Translations under genes and position numbers: made by a program | Notes under the pieces: generated by a model | Told to the model about the DNA's origin: nothing | Database searches by the model: none | What the model saw: only the letters and a program-made list of their open reading frames with translations | Shown: one piece after another, positions 1 through 23,353 of the stretch | Position numbering within the stretch: position 1 is the first letter of the stretch | Layout of the letters: each line of letters starts with the position of its first letter | Source: Escherichia coli | GTDB taxonomy: Bacteria; Pseudomonadota; Gammaproteobacteria; Enterobacterales; Enterobacteriaceae | DNA length: 64,000 nt | Assembly (NCBI RefSeq): GCF_041886205.1 | Contig: NZ_CP169029.1 | Strand: one strand, 5' to 3'

Positions 1-1322
1 TCCATAGCGAACAGCTATTGAACGGCTATCTCATGCTGGCAACGCCGGTTATTAGCCTGTTTCCTGCCATCCTTGCGCAAAACTTCTGGCACCGTTTTCC
101 ACTTTACTGGCAGCGTCTGACGTTGCTGTTAGCCACGGTCACAACAGCTTCATTGCTGAATACCGCCCTGCTCTCCCCTTTTATGTCAGGCCCAATAATG
201 CTGCCGGGTTTGACCTCATTTACCGGAGGCGTATTACTGACGCCGTTTGTCTATCTTATCTTTGAGTTTCTGCGCCAGCAGCATCGCTACCAGCTCCTGG
301 GACTCGATACGCATAATCCCCCCTTGCGTACCTCTTTAATCATCTGGTGTAGCCTGTTTTTTATTATTGGTATCGGCACTCAGATGGTGCTGTCACCTGA
401 AATTGAACGTCTGCTGTTGATCGTAGTTTTTCTACCCAATGTGGTGATGGCGTGGAAATTTGGCTGGCAAGGTGGCGTACTCTCCGGGCTTTTGGGCAGC
501 ATGATGATCACCATCGCCCGCCAGATTGGCGTGGGCTTTAGTAACCTGGTGGAGCTGGAGATTTTCCTCGCGACCCAGGCATTGCTGGGAATTGGCCTGG
601 GCATTGCCATCAGCCGCCAGCAACATCTGGCGCTAAACCTGCACCATTACCGACAACGGCTGGAGGCCGAGCTGGCAGCGCGGCGGGCATTAGCGGAAAA
701 GCTGATCCACACCGAGGAGGACACGCGAAAAAACCTGGCGAGGGAGCTGCACGACGAAATCGGTCAAAACATCACCGCCATTCAGATCCAGTCGCAACTG
801 GTGAAGCGAGCGCGCGATCCGGCGCAAATTCAATCCGCAGCCAGCCAAATCAATGAACTCGCTCGCCGCATTCATCTCTCCACCCGCCAGTTGCTGCGCC
901 AGCTGCGGCCCCCCGCGCTTGATGAACTGACATTCCGCGAAGCGTTGTTGCATCTGATTAATGAATTTGCCTTTAGTGAACGCGGCATTCATTGCCAGTT
1001 TTCCTATCAACTGACCTCCACACCAGAAAACGAAACGGTGCGCTTTACCTTGTATCGGTTATTGCAGGAGTTGCTCAATAACGTCTGTAAACACGCCGAA
1101 GCCAGCGAAGTGACGATTATCCTGCGCCAGCAGGGAGAGATATTGCATCTGGAGGTCAGCGACAACGGCGTGGGGATCGCTTGCGGGAAAATGGCTGGAT
1201 TTGGCATTCAGGGGATGCGTGAGCGCGTCAGTGCCCTGGGCGGCGACTTAACGCTCGAAAAACAGCACGGCACGCGGGTAATTGTTAACTTGCCCACAAT
1301 TTTGCAACAAATCGCCGGATAA
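1..1322 (+). CDS. UhpB-like sensor histidine kinase, 5' end outside window (frame open back to position 3)
   Basis: Hydrophobic N-terminal segments, then H-box HTEEDTRKNLARELHDEIGQ and a C-terminal HATPase region (GMRERVSALGG); resembles UhpB. No in-frame stop upstream of the TTG at 18. Confidence 0.8.
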   Translation, partial: HSEQLLNGYLMLATPVISLFPAILAQNFWHRFPLYWQRLTLLLATVTTASLLNTALLSPFMSGPIMLPGLTSFTGGVLLTPFVYLIFEFLRQQHRYQLLGLDTHNPPLRTSLIIWCSLFFIIGIGTQMVLSPEIERLLLIVVFLPNVVMAWKFGWQGGVLSGLLGSMMITIARQIGVGFSNLVELEIFLATQALLGIGLGIAISRQQHLALNLHHYRQRLEAELAARRALAEKLIHTEEDTRKNLARELHDEIGQNITAIQIQSQLVKRARDPAQIQSAASQINELARRIHLSTRQLLRQLRPPALDELTFREALLHLINEFAFSERGIHCQFSYQLTSTPENETVRFTLYRLLQELLNNVCKHAEASEVTIILRQQGEILHLEVSDNGVGIACGKMAGFGIQGMRERVSALGGDLTLEKQHGTRVIVNLPTILQQIAG

Positions 1323-1394
1323 CCAGGAAAAAATCTTAGGCATCCCGGATTTTCTCTCATCCCCTTTCACTTTCATTTTCATATAGTCAGCAAC

Positions 1395-2711
1395 ATGGAG
1401 ACAACCATGCACGCGCGTTCAGCGAGAGAAATTAATCAATGCTACCGGACATTACGTCCGCGATTGCTGATGTGCATGATTATTGGCTACGCCGCATTTT
1501 ATCTGACGCGAAAAAGCGTGAATTACGTCCTTCCGGCGCTGCAAACCGACCTCGGACTGGATAAAGGCGACATTGGCCTGCTGGGTTCGCTGTTTTATCT
1601 CAGCTACGGATTGTCGAAATTTACCGCCGGACTGTGGCATGACAGCCACGGACAACGCGGTTTTATGGGCGTCGGCTTGTTCACCACCGGATTATTGAAC
1701 GTGGTGTTTGCCTTTGGCGAATCACTTACGCTTTTGCTTGTGGTCTGGACACTGAACGGATTTTTTCAGGGCTGGGGATGGCCACCGTGTGCTCGCTTGC
1801 TGACCCACTGGTACTCACGCAATGAGCGCGGTTTCTGGTGGGGCTGCTGGAATATGTCGATCAACATTGGCGGAGCGATTATTCCGCTAATTAGTGCCTT
1901 TGCCGCCCACTGGTGGGGCTGGCAGGCCGCGATGCTGACACCGGGGATAATCAGCATGGCATTAGGGATCTGGTTAACGCTACAACTCAAAGGCACGCCC
2001 CAGGAAGAGGGATTACCGACAGTTGGTCACTGGCGTCACGATCCGCTGGAGTTACGTCAGGAACAACAAAGTCCGCCGATGGGGCTGTGGCAAATGTTGC
2101 GCACCACCATGCTGCAAAATCCGCTGATCTGGCTACTGGGCGTCTCTTATGTACTGGTTTATGTGATCCGGATTGCGCTTAACGACTGGGGCAATATCTG
2201 GCTGACGGAAAGCCACGGCGTCAACCTGCTCAGCGCCAACGCCACGGTAATGCTGTTTGAAGTGGGCGGCTTACTCGGCGCGTTATTTGCCGGATGGGGA
2301 TCGGATTTGCTGTTTAGCGGGCAACGAGCGCCAATGATTTTGCTGTTCACGCTGGGGTTGATGGTGTCAGTCGCTGCACTGTGGCTGGCACCGGTTCATC
2401 ACTACGCTCTGCTGGCAGTGTGCTTTTTTACCGTAGGCTTTTTCGTCTTTGGTCCACAAATGCTGATTGGACTTGCGGCGGTGGAGTGTGGGCACAAAGC
2501 TGCGGCGGGTTCAATCACCGGATTTCTCGGCCTGTTCGCTTACCTTGGCGCGGCGCTGGCAGGCTGGCCACTGTCGCTGGTCATCGAACGCTACGGCTGG
2601 TCGGGAATGTTCAGTTTACTCTCGGTCGCCGCAGTACTTATGGGTTTACTGCTGATGCCGTTACTGATGGCGGGCATCACCACCACTCACGCTCGAAGGA
2701 TAAAACAATGA
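1395..2711 (+). CDS. UhpC-like MFS sugar-phosphate sensor/transporter (organophosphate:Pi antiporter family)
   Basis: 438 aa multi-helix membrane protein with UhpC/UhpT/GlpT-like N-terminus; 72 bp downstream of the kinase gene. Confidence 0.8.
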   Translation: METTMHARSAREINQCYRTLRPRLLMCMIIGYAAFYLTRKSVNYVLPALQTDLGLDKGDIGLLGSLFYLSYGLSKFTAGLWHDSHGQRGFMGVGLFTTGLLNVVFAFGESLTLLLVVWTLNGFFQGWGWPPCARLLTHWYSRNERGFWWGCWNMSINIGGAIIPLISAFAAHWWGWQAAMLTPGIISMALGIWLTLQLKGTPQEEGLPTVGHWRHDPLELRQEQQSPPMGLWQMLRTTMLQNPLIWLLGVSYVLVYVIRIALNDWGNIWLTESHGVNLLSANATVMLFEVGGLLGALFAGWGSDLLFSGQRAPMILLFTLGLMVSVAALWLAPVHHYALLAVCFFTVGFFVFGPQMLIGLAAVECGHKAAAGSITGFLGLFAYLGAALAGWPLSLVIERYGWSGMFSLLSVAAVLMGLLLMPLLMAGITTTHARRIKQ

Positions 2712-3739
2712 AAATGACCTTTACCTCTACTCTGATTGCTTCTGCCGTTGCGCTGGCGACTTTAACGGGTGCCGCGCAGGCGAAAGGCCGGCTGGTGGTC
2801 TATTGCAGCGCCACCAATGAAATGTGTGAAGCTGAAACCAAAGCGTTTGGCGAGAAATATGATGTGAAAACTTCATTTATCCGCAACGGTTCCGGAAGCA
2901 CCCTGGCAAAAGTCGATGCTGAAAAGAAAAACCCCCAGGCTGACGTCTGGTATGGCGGCACTTTAGACCCGCAATCGCAGGCCGGCGAGATGGGCCTGCT
3001 ACAGGCGTATAAATCCCCTAACCTTGAGCAGATCATGGAGAAATTCCGCGATCCGGCAAAAGTGAAAGGGAATCTGTCCTCTGCCGTATATGTGGGGATC
3101 CTCGGTTTTGGCGTAAACACCGATCGTCTGAAAGAGAAAGACCTGCCGGTGCCGAAGTGCTGGAAAGATCTCACCAAACCGGAATATAAAGGCGAAATTC
3201 AAATTGCCGATCCGCAAAGTTCCGGTACTGCCTACACCGCGCTGGCTACTTTTGCGCAGCTGTGGGGGGAAGATCAGGCCTTTGATTATCTAAAACAACT
3301 GAACGCCAACGTCTCCCAGTATACCAAATCAGGCATAGCCCCGGCACGTAACGCCGCTCGCGGCGAAACGGCGATTGGTATTGGCTTCCTGCATGACTAC
3401 TCGCTGGAAAAAGAACAGGGTGCGCCGCTGGAGTTGATTTCCCCTTGTGAAGGTACGGGCTATGAAATTGGCGGCGTCAGCATTCTGAAAGGCGCGCGCA
3501 ACCTCGACAATGCCAAACTGTTTGTGGACTGGGTATTATCAAAAGAAGCTCAGGAACTGGCGTGGAAGAAAGGGAAGTCTTATCAGATCCTGACCAATAC
3601 CACCGCCGAAACGTCGCCAAATTCGCTGAAGCTCGACGACCTGAAATTAATCAACTACGACATGGATAAATACGGTTCCACGGATGTTCGTAAGGCATTG
3701 ATTAATAAATGGGTTAGCGAAGTGAAGATGGGTAAGTAA
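2708..3739 (+). CDS. afuA: AfuA/FbpA-family periplasmic substrate-binding protein (sugar-phosphate or ferric type)
   Basis: Start MKMTFTSTLIASAVALATLTGAAQA is a signal peptide; ATG overlaps the uhpC-like stop (ATGA). The long ORF 2381-3739 is an upstream extension in the same frame. Confidence 0.8.
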   Translation: MKMTFTSTLIASAVALATLTGAAQAKGRLVVYCSATNEMCEAETKAFGEKYDVKTSFIRNGSGSTLAKVDAEKKNPQADVWYGGTLDPQSQAGEMGLLQAYKSPNLEQIMEKFRDPAKVKGNLSSAVYVGILGFGVNTDRLKEKDLPVPKCWKDLTKPEYKGEIQIADPQSSGTAYTALATFAQLWGEDQAFDYLKQLNANVSQYTKSGIAPARNAARGETAIGIGFLHDYSLEKEQGAPLELISPCEGTGYEIGGVSILKGARNLDNAKLFVDWVLSKEAQELAWKKGKSYQILTNTTAETSPNSLKLDDLKLINYDMDKYGSTDVRKALINKWVSEVKMGK

Positions 3740-3807
3740 ACCCGCATTAGGCGCATTTGCCGGGTGCAGCACAAATGCCTGCCCCGGCCAACCATACCGG
3801 AACTGCT

Positions 3808-5886
3808 ATGTCACAGACACTTGCACTCCATCCCGTGAAAAAGCGGGATGCGATTTTCCTTTGGGTTTTGCTGGGCTGGCTGGCATTTATCCTGTTGCCG
3901 AGCTGGAGTCTCGATTATGGCCTGCTGGAATCCACGAGTGATGAGATCCTCGAGGCTTATGGCTGGTCGCATTTTAATATCAGCTGGCTGTGGTATTTGT
4001 TACCGAGTCTGTTGCTGGTTCGCCCGTTTCGTGAGGCCACACGTGAACAGCGTAGTCGTCATTATTTTGATGCCGGCTGGGCATTGCTCTGTATGGCGTT
4101 TATCGTCATCAGCGCCACCGTGGCTGGACGCGGTTTAGGCTACGCCGCCATCGTGCTGTTTGTTGAATTAGGCGCGATTATGACGCTGGCCTTAACCCGC
4201 CTCGAATGGCTGGGCGGCGACCGCTTCGTGATCGGCTCGCTGATTGCGATTGTGGCGCTGATTGGCATTTTTATCGTCTGGCCGAGCATCGCCATTTTTA
4301 TCCCGATGTTCACCAACGACGCGGGAGAGTTCGCCCCGCTGGCGTTTATGAACGTGCTCTCGCAGGCACATATTGTGCAGGTGATCGTCAACTCTATCGT
4401 CTTGTCGATAGCGGTGGGTATTGGCTGTACCTTCTTCGGTCTGGTACTGGCGATTTATACCACGCGCATCGCCAAACGCAGCGCCATTATTGGCCGCATC
4501 TTTTCCATTCTGCCCATCGTTACACCACCGTTTGTGGTCGGCTTAGGCGTGACACTCATGATGGGGCGCTCCGGCTATATCACGGAGTTTATGGTGGAGT
4601 GGTTTGGGCTGACCAACACCAACTGGCTGTATGGCTTTACCGGGATCTGGCTGGCGCAGGTTCTGGCATTCACGCCAATGGCTTTTATGATCCTCGACGG
4701 GGCCATTAAAACCATTCATCCCTCGCTGGAAGAGGCCTCCTACACCCTGCGCGCCAGCCGCTGGCAAACCTTTAACGGCGTGTTTGTGCCGTTGCTAAAG
4801 CCCGCGCTCGCCAATGCCTTTTTAATCGTCGTGGTACAGTCACTGGCTGATTTCAGTAACCCGCTGGTGCTTGGCGGCAACTTCGACGTACTGGCGACGC
4901 AAATTTACTTCTACATTACCGGCTCGCAGCTGGATTATCAGGCCGCCAGCACGCTTGGTGCTTTCCTGCTGCTGTTCTCGCTGCTGGTGTTCTGCGTCCA
5001 GTATATGTGGATTGGTAAACGCTCTTACGTCACGGTTTCCGGCAAATCCTACCGTGGCGACGTCCAGCCACTACCGGTCACCCTGGTGTGGAGCGTGGTC
5101 GCCATACTTGCGGTATGGATTGCCTTTAACGCCCTGCTCTACGGCAGCATTTTCTACGGCAGCTTCACGGTGAACTGGGGCGTTGACTACACCCTGACGC
5201 TGGATAACTTTATCAAGTTATTTGGTCAGGGGATGAGCGACGGCGCGTGGCCTTCACTGTTGGATACCCTGCTCTACGCCGGGATTGCAGCCCCCATTAC
5301 CGCTATCTTTGGCCTGCTCATCGCCTGGGTGGTGGTGCGTCAACAATTCAAAGGCAAAAAGACCATCGAGTTCACCACCATGCTGTGCTTTGCCGTACCG
5401 GGTACGGTGGCGGGCGTCTCGTATATTCTCGCCTTTAACAGCGCTCCGGTTTATCTCACCGGAACGGCGGCAATTGTGATTATCTCGATGGTGATGCGTA
5501 ACGTTCCGGTGGGCATTCGTGCCGGGATTGCAGGTCTGGGGCAGATCGACAAATCGCTGGATGAAGCCTCACTCAGCCTGCGTGCGGGTTCCCTGCGAAC
5601 CATAACCCACATTTTACTGCCGCTGCTGCGCCCGGCCATTCTCTCGGCCCTGATCTACAGCTTTGTGCGGGCCATCACGACGGTCAGCGCCATCGTCTTT
5701 CTCGTCACGCCGGACACCCGCGTGGCAACAGCCTACATTCTTAACCGCGTTGAAGACGGCGAATATGGCGTAGCTATCGCCTATGGTTCGATTCTGATCG
5801 TGGTGATGCTGGCGATTATTTTCCTCTTTGACTGGCTGATCGGAGAAGCACGTATCTCCCGTTCTAAAGCCAAAAACCAGGCGTAA
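3808..5886 (+). CDS. afuB: AfuB/FbpB-family ABC transporter permease (fused two-domain)
   Basis: About 690 aa polytopic membrane protein; start chosen at MSQTLAL with GGAA upstream; ORF also open from 3757. Confidence 0.75.
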
Positions 5887-5897
5887 TGGAGCGCACT

Positions 5898-6944
5898 ATG
5901 AGTCAGAAAAATTTTGTGGAACTGCGCAACGTCACTAAACGATTCGGCAGTAATACGGTTATCGACAATATCAATCTCACCATTCCACAAGGGCAAATGG
6001 TGACGCTGCTCGGCCCTTCCGGCTGTGGCAAAACCACCATTCTGCGTCTGGTTGCCGGGCTGGAAAAACCGAGCGAAGGGCAAATTTTTATTGATGGCGA
6101 AGATGTCACGCATCGTTCCATTCAACAGCGCGATATCTGCATGGTGTTTCAGTCATACGCTCTGTTCCCGCATATGTCGCTGGGTGAAAACGTTGGCTAC
6201 GGGCTGAAGATGCTTGGCGTGTCGCGTAGCGAAGTGAAACAGCGGGTGAAGGAGGCGCTGGCAATGGTGGATCTGGAAGGCTTCGAGGACCGCTATGTCG
6301 ATCAGATTTCCGGTGGTCAGCAACAGCGTGTGGCGCTGGCCCGCGCGTTGATCCTCAAACCGAAGGTACTGCTGTTTGATGAGCCGTTAAGTAACCTCGA
6401 TGCCAACCTGCGCCGCAGTATGCGCGATAAGATCCGCGAGCTGCAAAAGCAGTTTAATATCACGTCGCTCTACGTCACTCACGATCAAAGTGAAGCTTTC
6501 GCGGTGTCCGACACCGTACTGGTGATGAATAAAGGTCACATCATGCAGATTGGTTCACCGCAAGATCTCTATCGTCAGCCCGCCTCCCGCTTTATGGCAA
6601 GTTTTATGGGCGACGCCAACCTGTTCCCGGCGAACTTTAGCGAAGAGGATGTCGATATCTACGGTTATCGCCTGCCGCGCGCGGCGCATTTCCCGGCGCA
6701 AGGTAGCGGCACCGTCGGCGTTCGCCCGGAAGCCATCACCTTAAGCAATCACGGCGAAGAGAGTCAGCGTTGTGTTATTCGCCATGTCGCCTACATGGGG
6801 CCGCAGTACGAAGTGACCGTAGAGTGGCATGGACAGGAGATTTTATTACAAGTAAACGCCACCCGTTTACAGCCCGATATTGGTGAGCACTATTACCTCG
6901 AAATCCATCCTTACGGGATGTTTGTTTTAGCGGATGCGGCATAA
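5898..6944 (+). CDS. afuC: AfuC/FbpC ABC transporter ATP-binding protein
   Basis: Walker [10 protein letters not shown], signature [15 protein letters not shown], Walker B LLFDEP; 348 aa from MSQKNF; an in-frame ATG at 5886 overlaps the afuB stop. Confidence 0.9.
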
Positions 6945-6957
6945 AAATAGCACATAA

Positions 6958-6985
6958 ACGGTCCCCACCTGTCTTGAGGGACCGT
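6958..6985 (+). terminator. Hairpin downstream of afuC (ACGGTCCC-12 nt-GGGACCGT), no clear U-tract
   Basis: Perfect 8 bp inverted repeat 14 bp after the afuC stop. Confidence 0.3.
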
Positions 6986-7026
6986 TCACCTGGTTAGGCT
7001 TCGGACAACAATTATTCTCCAGTGTT

Positions 7027-7078
7027 ATATACTATAGGGGGGTATGCATTGACATATAGCATACCCCCCTATAGTATA
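7027..7078 (+). promoter_or_regulatory. frmRAB promoter/operator: long dyad with G6/C6 tracts (FrmR operator)
   Basis: TATACTATAGGGGGGTATGC ... GCATACCCCCCTATAGTATA, a near-perfect 52 bp inverted repeat ending 25 bp before frmR. Confidence 0.7.
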
Positions 7079-7103
7079 TTGCATGCAGATGATGAGGTGC
7101 GAA

Positions 7104-7379
7104 ATGCCCAGTACTCCGGAAGAGAAGAAAAAGGTCCTTACTCGAGTTCGTCGTATTCGAGGGCAGATTGATGCTCTGGAACGGTCGCTGGAGGGTGATG
7201 CCGAATGCCGTGCCATACTCCAACAGATCGCTGCCGTTCGGGGCGCGGCTAACGGGCTGATGGCAGAAGTGCTTGAAAGCCATATCCGGGAAACGTTTGA
7301 CCGAAATGACTGCTACAGCCGCGAAGTCAGCCAATCCGTTGACGACACTATTGAACTGGTTCGTGCCTATCTGAAATAG
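7104..7379 (+). CDS. frmR: FrmR formaldehyde-responsive repressor (CsoR/RcnR family)
   Basis: 91 aa from [21 protein letters not shown]; the listed ORF 7083-7379 is an upstream extension. Confidence 0.9.
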
Positions 7380-7383
7380 CTGA

Positions 7384-8523
<1,140 letters not shown>

Positions 8524-8614
8524 TTTCCCGCAGGTATACCCGTCCACTTCAGACGGGGTTCTTAATACTCTCCCCGGGCAGCCGTCCGGGGGATTAACCG
8601 TGAGATAATGACTG

Positions 8615-9448
8615 ATGGAACTCATTGAAAAACATGCCAGCTTTGGCGGCAGGCAAAATGTGTATCGGCATTATTCCCAATCACTGAAATGTGAAATGAA
8701 TGTCGGCGTCTATCTCCCACCAAAAGCCGCGAATGAAAAATTGCCGGTGCTGTACTGGCTTTCAGGCCTGACCTGCAACGAGCAGAATTTCATTACTAAA
8801 TCGGGGATGCAGCGTTACGCGGCTGAGCACAACATTATTGTTGTTGCGCCGGACACCAGTCCGCGAGGCAGTCATGTCGCAGATGCCGACCGTTACGATC
8901 TCGGGCAAGGTGCCGGGTTTTACCTGAACGCGACGCAAGCGCCGTGGAATGAACATTACAAAATGTATGACTATATCCGCAACGAGCTGCCGGATTTAGT
9001 GATGCAACATTTTCCGGCAACGGCCAGAAAGTCTATCTCAGGTCATTCTATGGGCGGGCTGGGCGCGCTAGTGCTGGCGTTACGTAATCCAGATGAATAT
9101 GTCAGCGTCTCGGCGTTTTCGCCCATTGTTTCCCCATCGCAAGTACCGTGGGGACAACAAGCCTTTGCCGCATATCTTGGTGAAAATAAAGAGGCGTGGT
9201 TGGATTACGATCCGGTGAGCCTTATTTCACAAGGTCAACGCGTTGCGGAAATCATGGTTGATCAGGGGTTGAGTGATGATTTTTACGCGGAACAGCTGCG
9301 GACTCCAAATCTTGAAAAGATCTGCCAGGCGATGAATATCAAGACGTTAATCCGTTATCACGAGGGTTATGATCACAGCTATTATTTTGTCTCCAGTTTT
9401 ATTGGCGAGCATATTGCCTACCACGCCAATAAACTGAATATGCGTTGA
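8615..9448 (+). CDS. frmB: S-formylglutathione hydrolase (esterase D family)
   Basis: 277 aa with GHSMGG serine-hydrolase motif; third gene of frmRAB. Confidence 0.95.
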   Translation: MELIEKHASFGGRQNVYRHYSQSLKCEMNVGVYLPPKAANEKLPVLYWLSGLTCNEQNFITKSGMQRYAAEHNIIVVAPDTSPRGSHVADADRYDLGQGAGFYLNATQAPWNEHYKMYDYIRNELPDLVMQHFPATARKSISGHSMGGLGALVLALRNPDEYVSVSAFSPIVSPSQVPWGQQAFAAYLGENKEAWLDYDPVSLISQGQRVAEIMVDQGLSDDFYAEQLRTPNLEKICQAMNIKTLIRYHEGYDHSYYFVSSFIGEHIAYHANKLNMR

Positions 9449-20204: not shown

Positions 20205-20234
20205 TTTACACTTTATGCTTCCGGCTCGTATGTT
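20205..20234 (+). promoter_or_regulatory. lac promoter (-35 TTTACA, -10 TATGTT)
   Basis: TTTACACTTTATGCTTCCGGCTCGTATGTT. Confidence 0.9.
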
Positions 20235-20240
20235 GTGTGA

Positions 20241-23353
<3,113 letters not shown>

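Follow-up and report, generated by a model that had tools for sequence, protein, structure and literature searches.

The frm promoter of Escherichia coli (Pfrm) is a widely used formaldehyde biosensor part. A large inverted repeat within it was recognized by Denby et al. 2016 (Sci Rep 6:38879, PMC5146963, Fig. 6a) as a tandem of type I sites for the repressor FrmR. The same authors reported that FrmR binds Pfrm DNA specifically, with a Kd of about 220 nM, that formaldehyde dissociates the complex, and that transcription from Pfrm in vitro is inhibited in an FrmR-dependent manner (PMC5146963). In addition, they identified a methylene bridge between Pro2 and Cys35 as the formaldehyde-sensing mechanism and considered, as an alternative, a single tetramer bridging the two sites (PMC5146963). 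In a study from 2024 (PMC11127321), two ATAC-N9-GTAT sites were placed 5' of the -35 of promoter J23100 and in its -35/-10 spacer, and this resulted in FrmR-dependent repression. Repression was reportedly lost with a PfrmR that was truncated upstream of the sites and kept both of them; this was in a multicopy methylglyoxal sensor, and the exact end of the truncation is not stated. Moreover, according to a second-hand account of the Sort-seq map of Rohlhill et al. 2017, base changes in the palindromic regions of Pfrm alter the strength of the promoter.

Two other operators are close enough for a direct comparison. The frmRA promoter of Salmonella Typhimurium was studied by fluorescence anisotropy with a 33-bp probe, frmRAPro (TTCTGATAGTATACCCCCCTATAGTATATGGAG), which binds two FrmR tetramers; mutation of one AT-rich flank (probe TTCTGGTTCAACACCCCCCTATAGTATATGGAG) left no detectable FrmR binding (Osman et al. 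2015, 2016). The rcnR-rcnA operator of E. coli is bound by RcnR, a repressor of the same family (FrmR scores 68 bits on the RcnR model), and consists of two type I sites of the form TACT-G6-N-AGTA (Iwig and Chivers, as cited in Denby et al. 2016).

Full-text and term searches that covered the primary FrmR papers found no published FrmR footprint on E. coli Pfrm, and the contact of FrmR with each arm of the repeat is therefore a well-supported assignment and not a nucleotide-resolution measurement. The first-pass annotation of the DNA described below had proposed a comparison with published footprints. That yardstick falls away, whereas the site assignment itself holds by other evidence, namely the sequence, the binding of promoter fragments or of the 33-bp Salmonella probe, the flank mutation and the transplantation of the sites.

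The inverted repeat at the frm promoter

We analyzed a stretch of 64 kb of E. coli DNA (the window) in which the frm operon follows directly on an afu island. The elements of the promoter region are, in order:

7008-7026, + strand: short block 5' of the dyad (…TTATTCTCCAGTGTT), kept in all Escherichia compared whichever gene lies 5' of it
7027-7047, + strand: left, promoter-distal arm of the dyad, 21 nt, ATATACTATAGGGGGGTATGC (repeat search)
7029-7045, + strand: FrmR site 1, ATAC-TATAGGGGG-GTAT, in the left arm, with the G6 tract, directly 5' of the -35
7048-7058, + strand: spacer of the dyad, 11 nt, ATTGACATATA; the dyad centre is 7053
7059-7079, + strand: right, promoter-proximal arm of the dyad, 21 nt, GCATACCCCCCTATAGTATAT (repeat search)
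7061-7077, + strand: FrmR site 2, ATAC-CCCCCTATA-GTAT, in the right arm, with the C6 tract, filling the -35/-10 spacer and overlapping the -10
7082-7085, + strand: predicted transcription start, placed from the -10 position and from the repeat centre at -29 given by Denby et al. (7053 + 29 = 7082)

According to the repeat search the two arms are 100% complementary, lie 11 nt apart and span 53 bp overall; with its flanks (7020-7090) the dyad reads cagtgttATATACTATAGGGGGGTATGCattgacatataGCATACCCCCCTATAGTATATtgcatgc. The G6 tract is found at 7037-7042 in the left arm and the C6 tract at 7064-7069 in the right arm. The first-pass annotation had thus described a real dyad and the right tracts, but its measures (arms of 20 bp, a spacer of 12 bp, positions 7027-7078, 52 bp in total) are each off by one. 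Among the perfect inverted repeats with a gap of at most 40 nt the dyad is the longest in all 64 kb. The runner-up within the window has 13 nt and lies at the lac operator, and the longest arms in 20 first-order Markov surrogates of the window measured 9-12 nt. The perfect arms of the dyad are far beyond chance.

The lac repeat belongs to the promoter-operator O1 region (20234-20268, just 5' of lacZ) and consists of TGTGTGAAATTGT and ACAATTTCACACA; the corresponding sequence in K-12 is one that we take to be TGTGTGGAATTGT. If so, a G-to-A change in the present strain, outside the 21-bp O1 core, renders the flanks fully symmetric.

A promoter scan of positions 6850-7450 yielded a single sigma-70-like site, with TTGACA at 7049-7054, a spacer of 17 nt and TAGTAT at 7072-7077, matching the consensus at ten of the twelve positions. 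The -35 hexamer is perfect and falls within the 11-nt spacer, the loop between the arms, and the -10 hexamer, which agrees with the consensus at four of six positions, lies inside the right arm. The pattern ATAC-N9-GTAT has exactly two matches in the 64 kb (0.47 expected by chance), one in each arm of the dyad. The inner part of their N9 is formed by the G6 and the C6 tract, respectively. By our own count the site centres, 7037 and 7069, are 32 bp apart, versus the 31 bp given by Denby et al. 2016.

Type I sites of the CsoR/RcnR family have a central G/C tract of 3-8 bp (the definition as quoted from Denby et al. 2016), AT-rich inverted repeats around this tract and a location in the promoter of an operon that is headed by, or adjacent to, the gene of the cognate repressor. 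Both arms have the tract, both have the repeats (ATAC...GTAT in the case of FrmR), and frmR is the adjacent gene. Judged by these features, each arm of the dyad is a predicted type I operator site of the family, with the G6 or the C6 tract as its centre.

The genes on either side of the promoter are the following:

5886-6944, + strand: afuC/fbpC, ABC ATPase (NF008513, 699 bits), the last gene of the island, which abuts the frm promoter and lies outside the operator
7104-7379, + strand: frmR, 91 aa, with Pro2, Cys35 and His60 present in the translation
7414-8523, + strand: frmA, S-(hydroxymethyl)glutathione dehydrogenase, 369 aa (TIGR02818, 745 bits, above cut-off)
8615-9448, + strand: frmB/fghA, S-formylglutathione hydrolase, 277 aa (TIGR02821, 401 bits, above cut-off)

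The dyad ends 24 nt before the ATG of frmR (7104), which is preceded by a Shine-Dalgarno-like GAGGTG at 7094-7099, and it was rightly placed directly upstream of that gene. The identity of frmR is clear: the product is identical to K-12 FrmR over 91 of 91 residues, scores 186 bits against PDB 5LBM over residues 1-91 and 189 bits against the NCBIfam equivalog NF008464 (cut-off 133). Downstream of it, frmA and frmB are full-length open reading frames in the same orientation. The location at the frm promoter that had been proposed from the sequence is borne out by the -35 in the spacer, the -10 in the right arm and the FrmR gene downstream.

Relation to the described operators

The resemblance to the K-12 promoter is nearly complete. 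Locus, FrmR product and arrangement are the same: in both, the -35 is enclosed by a large inverted repeat made of ATAC-N9-GTAT sites in tandem. The operator is identical to that of MG1655 at 52 of 53 bases, and the 19-nt cores are identical in the alignment. The one difference is a C to A change at the equivalent of 7060, which leaves K-12 with perfect arms of only 19 nt versus 21 nt here. Outside the operator K-12 differs in having yaiO upstream of about 7005, where the present strain has afuC. The first-pass annotation had spoken of a known FrmR operator architecture, and the match to the inverted repeat of Denby et al., with one differing base in K-12 and an unchanged FrmR, is in full agreement with that. 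The reports of Denby et al. and Osman et al. and the 2024 transplantation all fit the dyad; its identification is therefore correct and the element, real but ordinary, had already been described.

With Salmonella Typhimurium the locus shares the core ATACCCCCCTATAGTATAT, 19 consecutive bases that are common to the 33-bp probe and positions 7061-7079 (19/19). The Salmonella promoter has been described with one C6 site, whereas E. coli has an extra, inverted copy 5' of the -35, and the Salmonella FrmR is a more distant homologue (PDB 5LCY, E = 7e-25). The RcnR operator likewise has G6 between TACT/AGTA-like half-sites, a tandem arrangement and one tetramer per site. It differs in the distance between the centres (19 bp versus 32 bp for FrmR), in the effector (Ni/Co versus formaldehyde) and in layout, with the FrmR sites forming a single long dyad on both sides of the -35.

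Variation within Escherichia

Of 5426 complete E. coli genomes, 5411-5415 have the promoter block that runs from about 7012 to frmR. The exact 53 bp were found in 3554 of the 5135 matching E. coli records, with MG1655 showing one mismatch. Hence the perfect 53-bp dyad is the majority allele of E. coli, and it is K-12, the studied strain, that carries a one-base imperfection.

An alignment of nine Escherichia sequences (six E. coli, E. albertii and two other Escherichia lineages) showed where change is tolerated. The left core ATATACTATAGGGGGGTAT (7027-7045, 19 nt) is invariant in all nine, and so is the right core (7061-7079) except in E. albertii, which has ATACTCCCC. Otherwise the changes are confined to the spacer and to the two stem pairs next to it (7046-7047 and 7059-7060). 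One-sided variants of arm and spacer are GAATAC in K-12, TCATAC in O157:H7, GTATAC in 2014C-3057 and TATGT in 2012C-4227; the spacer is polymorphic among E. coli, and strain 2012C-4227 has one change within the TTGACA hexamer. Because these changes are one-sided and uncompensated, the pairing of the stem is not what selection preserves. The pattern points to selection on two protein sites and not on a hairpin. The value of this result is modest and comparative: the invariant unit is a core of 19 nt per arm.

FrmR sites at other frmR loci

For a wider comparison we used 80 frmR loci from other genomes of gamma-, beta- and alpha-proteobacteria. Most of these loci have an ATAC-N9-GTAT site (consensus ATACT-N7-AGTAT) 5' of frmR. 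A single site, positioned right after or over the promoter hexamers, is found in Brucella/Ochrobactrum and relatives, the Comamonadaceae, the Pasteurellaceae and Tatumella. Two sites around a TTGAC(A)-like -35, with centres 32-35 bp apart, are found in Pantoea, Edwardsiella, Providencia, Serratia, Morganella, Aeromonas and Deefgea, in most cases in inverted orientation. By this distribution the proximal site is near-universal and the inverted distal site is an addition in the Enterobacterales, Aeromonas and Deefgea. At the locus of Erwinia endophytica (L016), the sites ATACTGGGATATAGTAT and ATACTGGTGTATAGTAT, about 30-80 nt 5' of frmR, flank the -35 as direct repeats, and a hairpin is therefore not required.

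In other genera the arms differ at 1-4 of the 17 positions. An uninterrupted G6 tract was seen only in Escherichia and the Salmonella probe, and the other Enterobacterales among the loci compared have GTGGAG or GTGGGG. In nine two-site lineages the mean mismatch between arms was 1.67 within a locus versus 2.11 across loci, a difference too small to claim concerted evolution of the arms. Both arms simply follow one consensus, ATACTATAG-K-GG-R-GTAT, and the GTGGAG-core perfect dyads at L008, L010 and L018 are on that account best taken as two good copies of the local consensus.

Two further observations concern particular groups of loci. Near-identical frm promoters, with a perfect dyad of 18-21 nt and the core TATACTATAGTGGAGTAT about 100 nt 5' of the frmR match, occur at L008, L010 and L018, and the hosts of this type are an Edwardsiella anguillarum plasmid, an Enterobacter sp. 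and Morganella psychrotolerans. A second near-identical type is common to Citrobacter freundii, Klebsiella grimontii and Maribrevibacterium harenarium. The recurrence of such promoters across genera suggests that frm cassettes may be horizontally mobile. In the Lysobacteraceae and relatives (L034-L036, L053, L056, L078) the ATAC-N9-GTAT pattern has no match, and a motif ATACTCCCCCCCACT ends at, and overlaps, the start of the frmR homologue as deduced by tblastn. Either the true start codon lies further downstream at these loci or the operator overlaps the start.

The junction with the afu island

Homology between E. coli of the afu type and of the yaiO type breaks at about 7001-7012, some 15-25 bp 5' of the dyad. 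The gene afuC is the upstream neighbour in only 450 of about 5415 promoter-bearing genomes; in the others, including K-12, B and many pathogens, this position is taken by yaiO. The conserved block at 7008-7026 could be an UP-like element or provide flanking contacts.

The island itself is annotated in an identical strain (L086, where positions 1223-9015 correspond to about 1-6944 of the window) between tauA and frmR. The annotation lists a response regulator, a MASE1 sensor histidine kinase, a UhpC-like MFS sugar-phosphate receptor, and the substrate-binding protein, permease and ATPase of an ABC system, the last one named 'ferric' fbpC. The UhpC-like neighbour suggests that the afu island serves the uptake of sugar phosphates and not the transport of iron. 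Behind the stop codon of afuC, at 6958-6989, lies a G+C-rich stem of 8 bp (ACGGTCCC...GGGACCGT) with a loop of 12 nt and no T run. This stem is part of the island-specific DNA, is present in O157:H7 as well, and may be a transcript-end or stabilizing hairpin for afuABC.

Discussion

The 53-bp dyad is, with high confidence, the operator of frmRAB, made up of two FrmR sites in inverted orientation, which flank the core promoter and in part overlap it. Tetrameric FrmR free of formaldehyde would sit on both sites and exclude RNA polymerase, and the bound repressor would shut down frmA and frmB as well as its own gene. Formaldehyde cross-links Pro2 to Cys35 between subunits, reshapes the DNA-binding face and so frees FrmR. 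Since frmR is the first gene of the operon, the operon would be autoregulated. This reading joins what was observed here (the sequence, its position relative to the hexamers and frmR, its identity to the sites published for E. coli and Salmonella and the pattern of conservation) to the binding, the repression and the formaldehyde mechanism as established in the literature. FrmR binding and release by formaldehyde may be expected on the present operator from K-12 Pfrm and from the Salmonella probe with its 19 of 19 matching nucleotides, for which they have been published. For the strain at hand we infer the occupancy of both arms, the stoichiometry and steric occlusion as the way in which repression is achieved.

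The manner in which FrmR engages the two sites leaves some room for other views. FrmR tetramers might bridge both sites, one on each face of the disc, or wrap flanking DNA, and thereby hold the -35 in a small repression loop. We consider such an arrangement unlikely, yet it is compatible with the distance of 32-35 bp at which the distal site is kept across the Enterobacterales, with the conservation of the 7008-7026 block and with the reported failure of the truncated promoter. In fact, since that truncated PfrmR still had both sites, sequences outside the dyad may matter. An operator consisting of the promoter-proximal arm alone, with the distal arm as a dispensable or merely auxiliary inverted duplicate, is suggested by the single site, between or over the -35/-10, of the Salmonella, Pasteurellaceae, Tatumella and most alpha- and beta-proteobacterial frmR promoters and by the two tetramers that the one-site Salmonella probe already takes. 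Nevertheless, the distal core of 19 nt is invariant in all Escherichia compared, a distal site at 32-35 bp has also been kept in Erwinia, Serratia, Pantoea, Providencia, Edwardsiella, Deefgea and Aeromonas despite drift of its sequence, and both sites were used in the synthetic promoter that works (PMC11127321). We therefore regard the proximal arm as the sole working operator as improbable.

That the dyad acts as a nucleic-acid structure, instead of or beside its role as a protein site, is very improbable. A cruciform in supercoiled DNA, with the -35 concealed in the loop, or a hairpin in RNA that terminates read-through from afuABC, could draw on the perfect stem of 21 bp, on the stability of the fold as single-stranded DNA (-22.2 kcal/mol, z = -6.7, equalled by none of 200 shuffles) and on the position of the dyad 83 nt after the stop codon of afuC. 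However, the sequence that follows the dyad has no T run on either strand (TGCATGCAGATG on the + and AACACTGGAGAA on the - strand), and the dyad is not among the calls of the terminator scan; an intrinsic terminator was therefore rejected. The predicted frm start lies downstream of the dyad, which is thus not part of the frm mRNA. In addition, the variants of K-12, O157:H7, 2014C-3057, 2012C-4227 and E. albertii break stem pairs on one side only and without compensation, the direct orientation of the sites in Erwinia endophytica permits no hairpin, and the dyad occurs in more than 5100 genomes that mostly have yaiO and not afuC upstream. A scan of the dyad against Rfam 15 gave a best score of 26.8 bits versus a threshold of 90, for a eukaryotic miRNA hairpin model, and amounts to noise. 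The proximity of the afu/yaiO homology break could finally be taken to mean that the dyad was left behind when the island arrived by a mobile element or by recombination, for instance as a terminal inverted repeat or an att-like site. This is hardly credible, since the dyad lies on the conserved side of the junction, the promoter is found in 5411 genomes of which only 450 have an adjoining afuC, E. albertii and cryptic Escherichia clades have the dyad next to other upstream DNA, the 64-kb window holds no second copy, and the repeat was not seen at the far end of the island or at further island junctions. Being present regardless of the island, the dyad is not the end of a mobile element.

With the dyad taken as the frmRAB operator, the claim remains that its presence confirms that frmRAB regulation is intact next to the island. 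All known regulatory parts are indeed unchanged: the operator is the majority allele, FrmR is identical to that of K-12, and frmA and frmB are full length. Formaldehyde-inducible, FrmR-repressed transcription of frm is predicted for this strain, and the regulation is very likely intact beside the island. The word "confirms" is nonetheless too strong for sequence evidence, because the upstream DNA differs from that of K-12 by the afu island and the truncated PfrmR reportedly lost repression. If FrmR were indeed to bridge the sites or wrap the flanks, insertions of islands such as afu beside the promoter could tune the sensitivity to formaldehyde. As it stands, about 15-25 bp separate the afu insertion from the operator, and the known cis and trans parts of the frm system are all unchanged.
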